Source of the DNA: a virus
Length of the DNA: 64,000 bases
Direction: 5' to 3' (one strand)
Virus record (IMG/VR): IMGVR_UViG_3300020183_000012
Span: 1-64,000 of that record
A model generated the notes under the pieces. That model was not told where the DNA came from, ran no database searches, and saw only the letters and a program-made list of their open reading frames with translations. A program made the position numbers and the translations under genes. Positions 104 through 39,823 of this stretch are shown here, piece after piece; the first letter of the stretch is position 1; every line of letters begins with the position of its first letter.

Positions 104-676
104 ATGAAAAAGACCTTTTCTATAGACCTTGGTTTTTCCAAAAGAACCTGGGATGATATTAGGTGCATTGTTTCTGAAATATCTCATCCCAAAAAGCATA
201 TATCTGTTGTTTTAGAAAAAAATCAAGTAGTATCAATAGGTGCAAATACTCATCACACTAAGCCCATAGCCACTAAGTATGGATATCAATTCGGAGAGTA
301 TCATTCTGAGCTTGATGCTATAATTAAAATGAGCAAAAGAAGTTCGTACAGAGAGCTAACTTTAATAAATTTTAGATTTAACAGAATGGGTGAAATAAGG
401 ATGGCGAGGCCATGCATCAAGTGCATGAGGTGGTGCAAGTCTTATTTTGATAGGATAGTTTATTCTCATGAAAATTGCTCTATGATGTATGAGCTTGATC
501 TTGATTCATACAACATTGATGATCATGCTAGAAATTTTATACCCGAATTTGAGCTTATGTCGGTTGACAATGGTTTCCGAAATGAGATAATGTCTATGTT
601 CAAGTCTAGGGACATTCTTAAAAATGAAAGACCTATTAAAATTAAGAAGATCAAAGCTGATCTCTTGCCTGCATGA
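104..676 (+). CDS. Zinc-dependent cytidine/adenosine deaminase-superfamily protein
   Basis: HSE (HxE) plus RPCIKC (PCxxC) zinc/catalytic motifs; GAN motif upstream. Confidence 0.8.
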   Translation: MKKTFSIDLGFSKRTWDDIRCIVSEISHPKKHISVVLEKNQVVSIGANTHHTKPIATKYGYQFGEYHSELDAIIKMSKRSSYRELTLINFRFNRMGEIRMARPCIKCMRWCKSYFDRIVYSHENCSMMYELDLDSYNIDDHARNFIPEFELMSVDNGFRNEIMSMFKSRDILKNERPIKIKKIKADLLPA

Positions 677-1319
677 ATCGGTTGTCAAAAAAGGCTTTAA
701 GAGTCCTCTTGTAGCATTTTCTGGTGGACCAGATTCATGCCTTTTGCTTTCCGGTCTTAGTGTTCTTTCAAAAAGAAAATCAACTCCAGCAGATTTTTCT
801 TTTTTTGCTTTTCATGTCAATCACAATTTAAGAGAATCGGCAAAACACGACGAAGATTTTTGTGTTGATTTCTGCAAAAAAATTAACGTTCCTATTGGTA
901 CCGCTAAACTTAATTTTTCTTCTTTAGAGAATATATATCACAGGGCACGTCAGGCAAGATACGACGCCTTGTTTGACTTTGCAAATTTAAACAGATGTGA
1001 CTGTATTTTGACCGCTCATCATGGTGATGATTTTGTTGAAACTGTTATTTTACAGTCTTTAAGGGGTGTAGATAAATCAAAAATTGGTATTAAGGAAATT
1101 TCCAACTGGAAGGGTCTTCCTTTAATTAGACCCATGTTTGATTTTACAAAAATTGAAATTGAAAGTATTTTAAAAAATCATAACATCCCTTTTGTTGTTG
1201 ATCCTTCTAATTATTCAGATAGAGCTAGATCAAAAATTAGAAGAGAAATTCTTCCTGTTTTAAAATCAATTAATCCTAGTGTTCATGCAACTATGAGAAG
1301 GATTTTTTCTGTAGATTAA
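624..1319 (+). CDS. tilS: tRNA(Ile)-lysidine synthetase, short form (catalytic domain only)
   Basis: PP-loop SGGPDS, HVNHNLR, ARQARY, TAHHGDD..ET, LIRP, DPSN motifs; 231 aa, lacking C-terminal domains. Confidence 0.9.
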   Translation: MKDLLKLRRSKLISCLHESVVKKGFKSPLVAFSGGPDSCLLLSGLSVLSKRKSTPADFSFFAFHVNHNLRESAKHDEDFCVDFCKKINVPIGTAKLNFSSLENIYHRARQARYDALFDFANLNRCDCILTAHHGDDFVETVILQSLRGVDKSKIGIKEISNWKGLPLIRPMFDFTKIEIESILKNHNIPFVVDPSNYSDRARSKIRREILPVLKSINPSVHATMRRIFSVD

Positions 1320-10569: not shown

Positions 10570-12399
10570 ATGGCCACAAAAATTTGGAAACCTTGCAATG
10601 CAGTTACTTCAAGTTCTAGCTACAGCGGAAACACATCTGGATGTACTAATTTTCAATGGCAAGAAGCATCCAACTGGAGTGATGGTTCTGTACCTCAGCA
10701 GGGTGATGATATAGTTTTTTCTCCTAATTACAATTATCCTTGCGTGGGAGGACCAGGCGATGATCGTCCTTTTAAAACCATAACAATTCAAAAAGGTTTT
10801 AATAGGCCAATAGGTCAGCTAAAAAGTCCTAACGAACCATTGAGTTTAACTGCTTTGCAGGTTAACTTCGGTGATCTTATAATATATAGGCCAAATGCAA
10901 GCGAAGCTAAGCAGATATCTGCTCCAATAGTTATTGATAGGCTGTGTTCTAGTGTTCCTTCTGATTACCCTGGAGGTAGCAATAACCCACCAAATTTGTA
11001 TGGCCCAATAACTGGAGGAAGAATCTATGTTTACGATGAGAATGAAGATAATGTAAGTTCTTATTATTTTTCTGGGCATTCTAGATTGATTCTCTTTGTT
11101 TGTAAAGATAATAAAAATTTGTCAAATAAAACTTTTGTATATGATGACCCAAACGGTAGGGTTAGTCAAATTTCTACTGCTTATAGCATAAGCTCTACTG
11201 GTCCGGAACCAGTAGTTAACAATACTCGCCATAGAAACAAAATTTCTGTTACCGCAGATTACATAGGAAACCTTAGTTTTAATACTCTTTCCTATGCTAA
11301 TGTAAGAGCTTCTTATATAGAGCAAATTTGGCTTTTGGGGTCGTCGCATGCTTCATGGGGGGTTAAAGACAGAAAGCCATTTACTAGTTATTTGCAGCTT
11401 GATGGCATACCAGAACAGGTTGATTCTGCTTTAACTCCTGGAGATATAACCGTAGCATATAGTAAGGAACTTTTTGTAGGTAATATAAATATTGGCAAAC
11501 CTACTGGGGGTGCTTCTTTAATAGGAAATCCAGCGACTCAGGGTTGGGATTGGACAAAGCCAGAAAATTGGGAGTGGACACACGGTATTGAGTTACGCAG
11601 TGGCATTAAGGCGATCAAAATGATCATGTCCTATCATCCTGTTGGAAGGATTAGTGCTGAAAGCTACTCCAAACCTGTTGGTTTCAGAATTGGCAGGTTG
11701 CAGTTTATCAGGAGCAATTTAAATTTTGGATCATCTAGTCAGTTTAATATGACTAATTCCAGGCAGACTATGAATTTTGTAGGTGTAAATGGAGTGGGCG
11801 CAATAATTGATCAGATTTATTTTCAGGTTACTACTCCTGATATACAATATAATGGCAGGTATTTAGACATAAACGTTCCGGCAACATCTCAATTTAAATT
11901 GTGGCACCATACTCCAGTGCAGGGTGATACCCTGCAAGATTTGGCTCCACACGGATCTATATACAACGAAACTACTGGAACATATTCAGACGGAGTATCA
12001 GATTATAGTTCAAGTTCTTCTATATCGCCGTGTCTCTGGTCAAGTAGTTCTAGTTCTTCAAGTAGCCGTAGTTCTTCTAGCAGTAGTAGTAGTTCTGGAT
12101 CAAGCAGCAGTAGCTTATCAAGCAGTAGTAGTAGCTCAAGCAGTAGAGCTAGCAGCAGCAGCAGCAGCAGCCGTTCCAGTAGTAGTAGTAGTGTCACATT
12201 TATTCCTGGAGAAACCGTAGATATCGCTCCGCCATTCAGGAGAAGTAGTAGCTCGTCTTCCAGTAGCAGTAGTAGTCAGTCCAGCAGTAGTAGTAGCAGT
12301 AGTAGCAATTCCAGCAGTAGTAGTCAGTCCAGCAGTAGTAGTAGCAGTAGTAGTCATTCCAGCAGTAGCAGCATGTCAAGTAGTTCAAGTAATGGATAA
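10570..12399 (+). CDS. putative virion surface/fibre protein with C-terminal poly-serine
   Basis: W..ASNWSDGSVP..GDDIVF N-terminal motif; beta-rich body; ~95 Ser in the last ~130 aa; SD GGAG. Confidence 0.6.
   Translation: MATKIWKPCNAVTSSSSYSGNTSGCTNFQWQEASNWSDGSVPQQGDDIVFSPNYNYPCVGGPGDDRPFKTITIQKGFNRPIGQLKSPNEPLSLTALQVNFGDLIIYRPNASEAKQISAPIVIDRLCSSVPSDYPGGSNNPPNLYGPITGGRIYVYDENEDNVSSYYFSGHSRLILFVCKDNKNLSNKTFVYDDPNGRVSQISTAYSISSTGPEPVVNNTRHRNKISVTADYIGNLSFNTLSYANVRASYIEQIWLLGSSHASWGVKDRKPFTSYLQLDGIPEQVDSALTPGDITVAYSKELFVGNINIGKPTGGASLIGNPATQGWDWTKPENWEWTHGIELRSGIKAIKMIMSYHPVGRISAESYSKPVGFRIGRLQFIRSNLNFGSSSQFNMTNSRQTMNFVGVNGVGAIIDQIYFQVTTPDIQYNGRYLDINVPATSQFKLWHHTPVQGDTLQDLAPHGSIYNETTGTYSDGVSDYSSSSSISPCLWSSSSSSSSSRSSSSSSSSSGSSSSSLSSSSSSSSSRASSSSSSSRSSSSSSVTFIPGETVDIAPPFRRSSSSSSSSSSSQSSSSSSSSSNSSSSSQSSSSSSSSSHSSSSSMSSSSSNG
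12007..12390 (+). repeat. AGT/AGC-rich poly-Ser coding microsatellite
   Basis: Runs of AGT/AGC codons in blocks of mostly 5 and 9 Ser, separated by single residues. Confidence 0.9.
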
Positions 12400-37731: not shown

Positions 37732-38097
37732 GGGCTCGAAAAGGTATCGATTGGAGGTTGAAACTTAAGATTGCACGCCGTGGTTGGTCGAATGGCCACG
37801 AAAAAAATCGATCAAAAAGTAACTGACAACTATCAGTTCAATTCATACAGAATTGGGTTTACCCAGTTCCGTCTCGCAGCCTAATTCGCTGCAAAGCATC
37901 TCCTGACTCCTGCTGGTGGCAGATGCACATAATAGCAGGATATTCAAACGAGTGTGTTACGAGCGAGTTTGAAGAAATATTCGTAAGAGCTGCCCGTATC
38001 TTGCTTGTGAGTATCGGGTTGCATTAATCACAGGATAAGCGTGTAGACATCTGAGCGTATGCCTAACAACACGGGGGTTCGACTCCCCCCGAGTCCA
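37732..38097 (+). ncRNA. ssrA: tmRNA
   Basis: Acceptor stem GGGCTCG/CGAGTCC with G3:U70 and A73; T-arm GGGGGTTCGACTCCCCC; tag ORF 37825..37884 (A)DNYQFNSYRIGFTQFRLAA*; GCAGC/GCTGC hairpin over the stop. Confidence 0.92.
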
Positions 38098-38100
38098 CAT

Positions 38101-38172
38101 GAGGATGTAACTCAATGGCAGAGTTCTACCCTTCCAAGGTAGATGTTGCGGGTTCGACTCCCGTCATCCTCT
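38101..38172 (+). tRNA. tRNA-Gly(TCC)
   Basis: GAGGATG/CATCCTC stem; CTACC-ctTCCaa-GGTAG; GGTTCGAC; no encoded CCA. Confidence 0.93.
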
Positions 38173-38175
38173 TTT

Positions 38176-38272
38176 GCGTAGTTAAGTATCACGTCTACTT
38201 CCGTGAAGACTTATATGGATTAGGCTTTCTAGAGGCTGGAATTGAGAATGGGTGCAAGTCCCTCGCTACGCT
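38176..38272 (+). ncRNA. atypical tRNA-like element (possible CTA anticodon loop)
   Basis: GCGTAGT/GCTACGC acceptor-like stem; GGG-TGCAAGT-CCC T-arm variant; enlarged D region; weak stem around TTCTAGA; occupies a tRNA slot in the array. Confidence 0.5.
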
Positions 38273-38276
38273 TTTC

Positions 38277-38349
38277 GCTCCCTTAACTCAGCGGCTAGAG
38301 TGTCGCCTTTACACGGCGGAAGTCACTGGTTCGAATCCAGTAGGGTGCA
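38277..38349 (+). tRNA. tRNA-Val(TAC)
   Basis: TCGCC-ttTACac-GGCGG; U3:U70 mismatch in acceptor stem. Confidence 0.9.
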
Positions 38350-38351
38350 TT

Positions 38352-38423
38352 GCCACTTTAGCTCAACGGCAGAGCAGTGCTTTTGTAAAGCACAGGTTGC
38401 GGGTTCGAATCCAGTAAGTGGCT
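38352..38423 (+). tRNA. tRNA-Thr(TGT)
   Basis: GCCACTT/AAGTGGC; GTGCT-ttTGTaa-AGCAC. Confidence 0.92.
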
Positions 38424-38426
38424 TTT

Positions 38427-38499
38427 GGTCGGGTACTCAAATGGCTAAGAGAATGGATTGCAAATCCATTATGTGCTGGTTCGAATCCAGTCCCGATCT
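38427..38499 (+). tRNA. tRNA-Cys(GCA)
   Basis: ATGGA-ttGCAaa-TCCAT; U73 discriminator. Confidence 0.92.
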
Positions 38500-38503
38500 T
38501 TAG

Positions 38504-38586
<83 letters not shown>

Positions 38587-38605
38587 TTGCCGATATATGA
38601 TAGAT

Positions 38606-38678
38606 TCCTCTGTAGCTCAGCTGGTAGAGCAGGGAGCTGTTAACTCCCGGGTCACTGGTTCAAATCCAGTCGGAGGAG
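38606..38678 (+). tRNA. tRNA-Asn(GTT)
   Basis: TCCTCTG/CGGAGGA; GGGAG-ctGTTaa-CTCCC; G73. Confidence 0.93.
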
Positions 38679-38682
38679 TTTT

Positions 38683-38755
38683 GGCACTGTAGCCCAATGG
38701 CAGAGGCGTTTGATTCAAAATCAAAATAGTGTCGGTTCGAGTCCGACCAGTGCTA
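38683..38755 (+). tRNA. tRNA-Leu(CAA), short variable loop
   Basis: GGCACTG/CAGTGCT; TTTGA-ttCAAaa-TCAAA; 5-nt variable region; A73. Confidence 0.85.
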
Positions 38756-38799
38756 CTAAAATGCCGATATAGATTGGTGTATAACGTGTTGAGGACAAT

Positions 38800-39168: not shown

Positions 39169-39621
39169 ATGGAAGAAATCATTTCTGAAGGTCTTACGAT
39201 AAGATCTGAGGATGCATGTGAAGGAGCATCCGTCAACGATGTAGAGGAGATAATCGGTGACGGATGCTTTCTTCATATGCATTTTGTTTCAGATCAACAG
39301 ATAGATATGGTTCTTGCTGATTCTGCAAATACAAATCAGTATTCTTTTTCAATAAAACCAAAATTTGACGAAGATAAATGTAGAATATTTTTGTCATGTG
39401 ACGGTTCTGTCGATAAGTCTTGTGATCATTTGATAAGAGAAATAGGAAAAGATGTAATAGAAGAGAATAAGTCATTGAAAAAAAGAATTGAGTATCTTGA
39501 AAAAAGCATGAAAAGCATAGATATTGAATTGAGGCTTGAGCGTGCAACAAAAACACTTAAAATTAATGAGCTTCTTGACAAGATAAATTCGCTTGAGAAA
39601 CATAAGATTGTAAACAGTTAA
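39169..39621 (+). CDS. hypothetical protein
   Basis: ORF with C-terminal coiled coil. Confidence 0.65.
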   Translation: MEEIISEGLTIRSEDACEGASVNDVEEIIGDGCFLHMHFVSDQQIDMVLADSANTNQYSFSIKPKFDEDKCRIFLSCDGSVDKSCDHLIREIGKDVIEENKSLKKRIEYLEKSMKSIDIELRLERATKTLKINELLDKINSLEKHKIVNS

Positions 39622-39624
39622 AAA

Positions 39625-39714
39625 GGATAGATGGCCGAGTGGTTTAAGGCTGCGGTTTACTAAACCGCCGTAGGCTCCAGAAGCTTACCGGGGGTTCGAA
39701 TCCCTCTCTATCCG
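39625..39714 (+). tRNA. tRNA-Ser(ACT)
   Basis: GGATAGA/TCTATCC, G73; GCGGT-ttACTaa-ACCGC; long variable arm GTAGGCT/AGCTTAC. Confidence 0.9.
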
Positions 39715-39719
39715 TTAAT

Positions 39720-39806
39720 GGACAGGTGTCCGAGTGGTTGAAGGAGCAGCATTGGAAATGCTGTTTACGGGAAACCGTAACGTGGGTTCGAATCCCACCT
39801 TGTCCG
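39720..39806 (+). tRNA. tRNA-Ser(GGA)
   Basis: CAGCA-ttGGAaa-TGCTG; long variable arm; G73. Confidence 0.93.
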
Positions 39807-39823
39807 TTTATTGGAGGTTTGAT

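Follow-up and report, generated by a model that had tools for sequence, protein, structure and literature searches.

Among the tRNA genes of bacteria, that for tRNA-Arg(ACG) is the only near-universal one to encode adenosine at the first anticodon position (A34). A tRNA-Ser gene with the anticodon ACT, found in a large uncultured lake phage, raises the question of what A34 does in a codon box split between serine and arginine. The anticodon ACU is complementary to the serine codon AGU, yet it lies outside the canonical serine anticodons (NGA and GCU). We analyzed a stretch of 64,000 nucleotides (hereafter, the window), which is the first 64 kb of a 146.7-kb phage contig (38.4% GC). As a contig of this length was rated only ~36% complete by CheckV, the virus is probably a jumbo phage. 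No Gp23 or terminase gene was found in the contig, which covers ~36% of the genome; the closest relative (G001), with a 92% identical tRNA and a deaminase match of 3.8e-44, carries a T4-type Gp23 capsid gene. Our preferred reading, to which we give a probability of about 0.62, is that the host seryl-tRNA synthetase (SerRS) would charge the phage tRNA, that A34 would stay unmodified and that AGU would be read by Watson–Crick pairing.

Table 1. Features of the window referred to in the text, with positions counted from its first base
Feature	Position	Strand	Basis
P0001, virus-restricted CDA-fold zinc deaminase (predicted)	104..676	+	motifs, family profile, AF2 model, Foldseek
TilS catalytic domain (tRNA-Ile lysidine synthetase)	624..1319	+	PF01171 6.4e-46; TIGR02432 152 bits, cut-off 93.6
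ORF, 609 aa, Ser-rich C-terminal tail (~residues 479-609), mostly AGT/AGC	10570..12399	+	codon analysis
tmRNA opening the tRNA island	37732..38098	+	ARAGORN; Rfam RF00023 122 bits
Gly-UCC, Val-UAC, Thr-UGU, Cys-GCA, Tyr-GUA, Asn-GUU and 74-nt CAA tRNA	38101..38756	+	upstream array, same island
tRNA-Ser(ACU) gene, class II, G73	39625..39714	+	ARAGORN, Rfam, covariation in 21 phage homologues
Anticodon stem GCGGT/ACCGC	39652-39656 / 39664-39668	+	read from sequence
Anticodon loop TTACTAA	39657-39663	+	read from sequence
Anticodon ACT, A34 at 39659	39659..39661	+	sequence; identical in independent assembly L471
tRNA-Ser(GGA)	39719..39807	+	4 nt downstream of tRNA-Ser(ACT)

Structure and Identity of the tRNA Gene

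ARAGORN called a 90-nt tRNA-Ser(act) gene (Table 1), and the Rfam tRNA model (RF00005) scored 54.3 bits on the same interval, against a gathering score of 29 (E 3.5e-10). The cloverleaf has a 7-bp acceptor stem (GGATAGA/TCTATCC) with the discriminator G73, a 3-bp D stem with C11:G24, 5-bp anticodon and T stems, and a 7-nt anticodon loop with U33 and a purine at position 37. The long variable arm is a paired stem-loop of ~21 nt, and four of its five predicted stem pairs covary among the phage homologues. CCA is not encoded, G73 being followed by TTAA. The SerRS identity elements of E. coli tRNA-Ser are G73, G1:C72, G2:C71, A3:U70 and C11:G24. All of them are present in the window's gene; among the 21 homologues, G1:C72 and G2:C71 are invariant and G73 is kept in 19. 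The initial annotation had described an intact serine tRNA body with the loop TT-ACT-AA, and the ARAGORN call and Rfam score bear out both this description and its coordinates.

By every sequence criterion tested the gene is thus a tRNA-Ser, and position 34 is its sole departure from a canonical AGY reader. It has its class II body, G73, C11:G24 and U33...A37-A38 in common with tRNA-Ser(GCU) of the E. coli serV type and with the GCT gene of cyanophage S-CBWM1, and many phage Ser(GCT) genes have the same 17-nt anticodon arm save for position 34. With A34 in place of G34, however, it would read AGU by Watson–Crick pairing and AGC probably not at all.

Conservation of A34 in Viruses

An independent 62-kb JGI assembly (L471) is 100% identical to the window over 271 nt, ACT included, and this agreement rejects the sequencing error that the initial annotation had considered. 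A34 is also present in relatives with a 92% identical tRNA (L047 and L102), and the neighboring 150-aa protein is found unchanged on at least 24 further contigs. We then scanned IMG/VR in two ways. With the window's anticodon arm as the query and position 34 left free, at least 117 loci were found, with at least 37 Ser(ACT) and at least 47 Ser(GCT) genes, the former having about 10 different acceptor stems. With the anticodon stem left unfixed, at least 93 further viral loci were found, all called class II Ser and with a locus GC of 27–51%; this second scan alone gave at least 32 different, internally complementary anticodon stems among the Ser(ACT) loci. The survey of phage tRNAs that the initial annotation had proposed thus yields, over both scans, at least 130 viral tRNA-Ser(ACT) loci, the scan counts being lower bounds and not frequencies.

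When 21 distinct Ser(ACT) genes of phages were aligned, 16 of the 27 stem pairs had double compensatory changes, and the nearest G34 homologue of the window's tRNA was just 80% identical among the matches listed. Together with the recurrence across loci, these comparisons indicate that A34 in Ser(ACT) is ancient and under selection. An error in assembly or sequencing, or a tRNA-Ser(GCU) gene decaying into a pseudogene, would need only one G-to-A transition from the canonical anticodon in an arm otherwise the same as in many phage Ser(GCT) genes, but it is ruled out for practical purposes by the identical gene in the independent assembly, by the distance to the nearest listed G34 homologue and by the wide recurrence of A34, kept in at least 130 viral loci and more than 100 cellular contigs while the stems vary by compensatory change.

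No match was obtained when the tRNA island was compared by megablast with 50,697 cultured-phage records, and in a distant BLAST of two ACT tRNAs against cultured phages the nearest matches were solely Ser(TGA) or Ser(GCT) genes.

In phages, Ser(ACU) takes the place of GCU. The ACT gene was the sole AGY-type serine tRNA in all 16 ACT-bearing viral records, 8 of which are at least 90% complete by CheckV estimates, and Ser(GCT) was found in the same locus as Ser(ACT) in 0 of 37 cases in the first scan and 1 of 93 in the second. As the contig holds ~36% of the phage, a Ser(GCT) gene may lie elsewhere in this particular genome.

Bacterial Carriers of Ser(ACT)

The exact ACT arm was found on at least 120 cellular contigs, mostly of Patescibacteria, and half of the listed Patescibacteria contigs have a Ser(GCT) gene within 8 kb of Ser(ACT). 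The closest cellular matches listed were not CPR bacteria but freshwater Verrucomicrobiales (87%) and Phycisphaerales/Planctomycetaceae MAGs (86%; locus GC 51–60%). The gene is chromosomal in GC-rich freshwater Phycisphaerales/Planctomycetaceae and Verrucomicrobiota MAGs (L124, L125, L136, L182, L195, L215 and L240), as it is in many Patescibacteria, and lies amid housekeeping genes, the neighbors in the GC-rich MAGs being MoeA, XdhC and xanthine dehydrogenase in one case and Dxs, isocitrate dehydrogenase and PanE in another. Five Phycisphaerales/Verrucomicrobiota genomes each have exactly one ACT and one GCT gene, on separate contigs. This gene content and the housekeeping neighbors imply that Ser(ACU) belongs to the native gene set of several bacterial phyla, where it is an additional AGY tRNA: whereas in phages ACU stands in the place of GCU, bacteria with Ser(ACU) keep it as a second, distinct AGY reader beside GCU.

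Being the nearest cellular matches of the phage gene, Phycisphaerales and Verrucomicrobiota also hint at the phage host. A host search by tmRNA BLAST against Planctomycetota–Verrucomicrobiota (PVC) and CPR genomes gave T-arm matches only.

Predicted Charging and Decoding

We infer that tRNA-Ser(ACU) is expressed as a functional elongator, probably transcribed with its neighbors in the tRNA island. Its release would depend on RNase P and on processing of the RNase Z type, and its 3′ end would be finished by a CCA-adding enzyme. The phage encodes one: a gene of the CCA-adding enzyme/poly(A) polymerase family is found at contig positions 113180–113617, beyond the window (PF01743, 81.5 bits), consistent with phage tRNA genes without an encoded CCA. 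Serine would be attached by the host SerRS via the long variable arm, G73, and the acceptor and D stems. As SerRS does not read the anticodon, the change of G34 to A should leave charging intact. To our knowledge, no other amino acid with a two-codon NNY box has a synthetase of this kind; the unaffected charging, unique to serine among the split boxes, may be why ACU and not AUU, AUA or ACA became common. The rule suggested by this is simple: of the split boxes, the one open to the spread of A34 is that with a synthetase blind to the anticodon.

In the ribosome, A34 would remain adenosine, A37 would probably carry t6A as in other ANN-reading tRNAs, and ACU would pair with AGU by three Watson–Crick pairs and with essentially no other codon, AGC being left to the host tRNA-Ser(GCU). 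Work on E. coli agrees with such decoding. With the ACU anticodon on an archaeal tRNA body, reassignment was 9.4% at AGU and 0.36% at AGG, and at AGC and AGA it was too low to detect (PMC11066159, Table 1); inosine was detected for the ACG, AUG and AAG anticodons only (PMC11066159). An engineered Ser-tRNA(ACU) was functional and gave better growth with a low likelihood of mistranslation (Raval et al. 2026, bioRxiv 10.64898/2026.05.15.725136). These serine and orthogonal tRNAs share the anticodon of the window's gene and are functional, non-toxic or beneficial, AGU-specific and unmodified (bioRxiv 10.64898/2026.05.15.725136; PMC11066159), but they are laboratory constructs, whereas the window's Ser(ACU) is a natural conserved gene of phages and uncultured bacteria.

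The Phage tRNA Set and Codon Use

The tmRNA that opens the island has the tag DNYQFNSYRIGFTQFRLAA and lies 2 nt from tRNA-Gly. tRNA-Ser(GGA) is probably co-transcribed with tRNA-Ser(ACT); the pair begins 3 nt downstream of a + strand ORF (39169–39621, stop codon included), and a scan for sigma-70 promoters and terminators around the island gave no excess over shuffles. The 74-nt CAA tRNA of the upstream array (Leu codon UUG; 38683–38756, + strand) has a short variable loop, unlike most Leu(CAA) genes in other phage loci, which are 79–87 nt long with a long arm.

The contig carries 16 tRNAs, mostly for A/U-ending or AGR codons, those other than tRNA-Ser(ACT) reading GGA, GUA, ACA, UUA, AGA, AGG, AAA, GAA and CAA. 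tRNA-Ser(ACU) would be part of this set, the codons of which would be far commoner in the AT-rich phage than in a GC-richer host. Per 1,000 codons, AGT is used 15.0 times in the phage and 9.4 and 6.4 times in two sets of PVC loci, and AGA and AGG are used 22.4 and 8.7 times against 1.6 and 2.1 in Phycisphaerales loci. This is the pattern to be expected if the AT-rich phage had a GC-richer host. The phage also encodes a TilS reduced to the catalytic N-domain (231 aa), in an ORF that overlaps the deaminase-like ORF by 53 nt, which shows the context of a phage investing in wobble-base chemistry; AUA is the top Ile codon of the phage (ATA 37.8 per 1,000). A 'tRNA-Met(CAT)' at contig positions 71833–71907 may be the tRNA-Ile2 substrate of the phage TilS.

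Codon demand alone does not explain the choice of ACU over GCU. AGT makes up 56% and AGC 44% of the phage's AGY codons, and this AGT share is lower than the share of U-ending codons in the phage's other two-codon boxes (66%); AGT preference did not differ between ACT-bearing and GCT-bearing phage loci (p = 0.94; GC-matched, 0.37). One gene is a heavy user of an AGU tRNA: the last ~130 residues of the 609-aa ORF are nearly all serine, and the genome-wide enrichment of AGT in serine runs is owed solely to it. The initial annotation had suggested an unmodified A34 tuned to AGT-rich poly-Ser. A34 reading AGU is the best supported of its three ideas, given the E. coli decoding data (PMC11066159, Table 1), but the tuning to poly-Ser is weak, with AGT-rich runs in a single gene and no raised AGT preference in the two comparisons above.

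Possible Inosine at Position 34 and the Deaminase-Like Protein

The alternative that survives best, though we consider it unlikely, is that A34 is converted to inosine by the host TadA or by the phage CDA-fold deaminase, so that ICU reads AGU and AGC and some AGA is misread as serine. Like Ser(ACU), the TadA substrate tRNA-Arg(ACG) has a genomically encoded A34, and the two loops share U33-A34-C35 and A37-A38. However, C32 and G36 of the substrate (C32-U33-A34-C35-G36-A37-A38) are both U in the phage tRNA (U32-U33-A34-C35-U36-A37-A38), and changes at positions 32, 37 or 38 blocked the editing of AAG and AUG variants (PMC11066159). Engineered Phe(AAA) and His(AUG) tRNAs are converted to I34 in E. 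coli, whereas ACU is not a substrate of TadA there, being neither deaminated nor able to read AGC (PMC11066159), and no TadA-type gene and no PF14437 or PF00383 match was found in the window's contig. Inosine would let one tRNA cover both AGY codons in phages without GCU, but at a cost: in the split Ser/Arg box, I34 would misread AGA, which is the phage's commonest Arg codon and for which the phage supplies a tRNA-Arg(UCU). The initial annotation had rightly seen this danger to AGA.

The ORF that the initial annotation had taken for a deaminase encodes P0001, which has the motifs H67-S-E69 and P103-C-x-x-C107; H67, E69, P103, C104 and C107 are invariant in 81 family sequences. P0001 alone had no match in Pfam, NCBIfam, PHROGs or PDB. 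A profile search for the family found 734 relatives, mostly ~125 aa long and viral, and 46 of 81 sampled members matched PF00383. Against the PDB, the family profile matched the dCMP deaminase of cyanophage S-TIM5 (4p9c) at 5e-8 and TadA at E 0.13–0.8. The AF2 model has a CDA fold with pLDDT 82 (52 in an earlier 7-sequence model), and Foldseek gave generic CDA-fold matches with the T4 and S-TIM5 dCMP deaminases and CDD1 on top. As modeled, P0001 is a genuine CDA-fold protein with dCMP deaminases as its nearest relatives, and both the profile and the structural ranking make a TadA-like activity less likely. Calling it a deaminase is thus backed by the zinc motifs and the fold, while the link to PF00383 and dCMP deaminases comes through the family profile only. 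Family members (L241–L256) are ~125–170 aa long, have an extra insert of ~10 residues before PCxxC and share the further invariant residues H32, N48, N89 and R91.

Editing would also fit the co-occurrence of the two genes. Of 25 near-complete viral records with ACT, 19 gave a strong match to the deaminase family (A2), and none did among 25 near-complete controls that have Ser(GCT) or Arg tRNAs only and no ACT (Fisher p = 1.2e-8, a statistic that ignores phylogeny), and the association is present in both T4-like (Gp23-type) and non-T4-like lineages. Nevertheless, tRNA and deaminase each occur without the other. The family is absent from 35 of 36 cellular genomes with Ser(ACT), and among the 21 viral records with the closest deaminase subfamily, searched with a 13-sequence alignment (A3), none has Ser(ACT) and 4 have Ser(GCT). 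The gene neighbors of the homologues vary and include UvdE, deoxyribosyltransferase-like genes, RNA ligase and TilS: the overlap with TilS in the window and the abutting T4 Rnl1-like RNA ligase in one relative would fit an act on tRNA, but two homologues adjoin nucleoside deoxyribosyltransferase-like genes. That relative is the jumbo phage G007, in which the homologue is immediately followed by the ligase (L243:1896-2951), an enzyme of tRNA repair.

A common cause would fit the co-occurrence as well and is simpler than a functional link: in a GC-rich host, a phage of high AT content would have to secure dTTP as well as the reading of AGU. The reading of Ser(ACU) as an unmodified AGU reader would cover the co-occurrence only through such a common cause. 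We find it very improbable that the P0001 family is a phage wobble deaminase that turns A34 of the phage's own tRNA-Ser(ACU) into inosine, with ICU serving AGU and AGC, and the deliberate ambiguity with the deaminase that the initial annotation had put forward is mostly unsupported, as the family is nearest to dCMP deaminases and not to TadA. If true, wobble editing by P0001 would be without precedent, both as a viral system for A-to-I editing of tRNA and as a case of I34 in a split codon box, and I34 might act as a G34 look-alike missed by host factors aimed at GCU.

Possible Nuclease Evasion and Reading of AGC

The change of G34 to A could also, as the initial annotation had proposed in its idea of escape from an anticodon nuclease, let the phage tRNA evade a host defense nuclease that cuts tRNA-Ser(GCU), with AGY decoding surviving infection, but we hold this improbable. 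Phage tRNAs with altered anticodon loops resist VapC, PARIS, retron and Schlafen nucleases (PMC10264068, PMC11464382, PMC11555353 and PMC13056530), and like Ser(ACU) the resistant tRNAs of T5 (against PARIS and retron effectors) and of mycobacteriophages (against VapC) differ from the host type in the anticodon loop. These documented cases, however, involve changed loop bases around an unchanged anticodon, whereas in Ser(ACU) the loop is canonical and the anticodon base itself is the sole difference from phage Ser(GCT) arms. We found no Ser(GCU)-specific nuclease described in the literature on phage tRNAs and defense nucleases, Ser(GCU) is described as not targeted in mycobacteria (PMC10264068), and no defense gene is linked to tRNA-Ser(ACU). 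Evasion would account for the replacement of GCT by ACT in phages, which AGT usage fails to do, but ACU would not restore the reading of AGC, at 44% of AGY codons, and for CPR and free-living bacteria, which have a native Ser(ACU) in addition to GCU, evasion would serve no purpose.

Similarly improbable is a superwobble, in which the unmodified A34 would read AGU and, by an A:C mispair, AGC well enough for a general AGY reader. That ACT is the sole AGY tRNA in these phages while AGC is still freely used would be explained by it, and some A34 tRNAs do read C-ending codons without inosine, such as those with Pro, Ala and Val anticodons (PMC11066159) and the Mycoplasma tRNA-Thr(AGU). For ACU itself, though, reading of AGC was below detection (PMC11066159, Table 1), and the bacteria that own ACU retain GCU too.

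Relation to Known A34 tRNAs

Retention of A34 on an evolutionary timescale in AT-rich genomes, replacing G34 or beside it, is known from the Mycoplasma tRNA-Thr(AGU) and from Leu(AAG) and Thr(AGU) of Lactobacillales. Those tRNAs serve four-codon boxes, where misreading is harmless, whereas Ser(ACU) serves a two-codon box. ANN tRNAs of two-codon boxes have been reported as sporadic in GtRNAdb and always beside a GNN partner (Raval et al. 2026, bioRxiv 10.64898/2026.05.15.725136), and the initial annotation's statement that A34 is largely limited to Arg(ACG) in bacteria agrees with the view of the same source. In the literature we found, non-ACG ANN anticodons are described as sporadic or absent among bacteria with no word on phages or on CPR and PVC bacteria, and we found no description of a natural Ser(ACU) in phages or CPR.

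Against this background, a two-codon-box ANN tRNA is common and conserved in nature, as the sole AGY serine tRNA in many large phages and as the second AGY tRNA in Patescibacteria, GC-rich Planctomycetota and Verrucomicrobiota. Our analysis adds the Planctomycetota and Verrucomicrobiota carriers, the contrast between replacing and accompanying GCU, the stem-agnostic census and the deaminase tests. Why cells almost never use tRNAs with an unmodified A34 is an open question on which Ser(ACU) bears, and the phage and bacterial genes are natural systems for studying the state of A34, the strictness of AGU reading and the cost at AGA and AGG. Annotators of phage genomes and metagenome-assembled genomes should keep their Ser(ACT) calls and not treat them as errors.

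A class II tRNA-Ser(ACT) with a different anticodon stem was also found in a record named as a giant-virus MAG (L381, IMGVR_UViG_GVMAG-S-3300010158-104_000001). Among the Ser(GCT)-bearing viral contigs, ARAGORN called further A34 tRNAs, namely Thr-AGT (L062, L079, L104 and L113), Leu-AAG (L020 and L085) and His-ATG (L096); by these calls, A34 in phage tRNA sets is not confined to serine.
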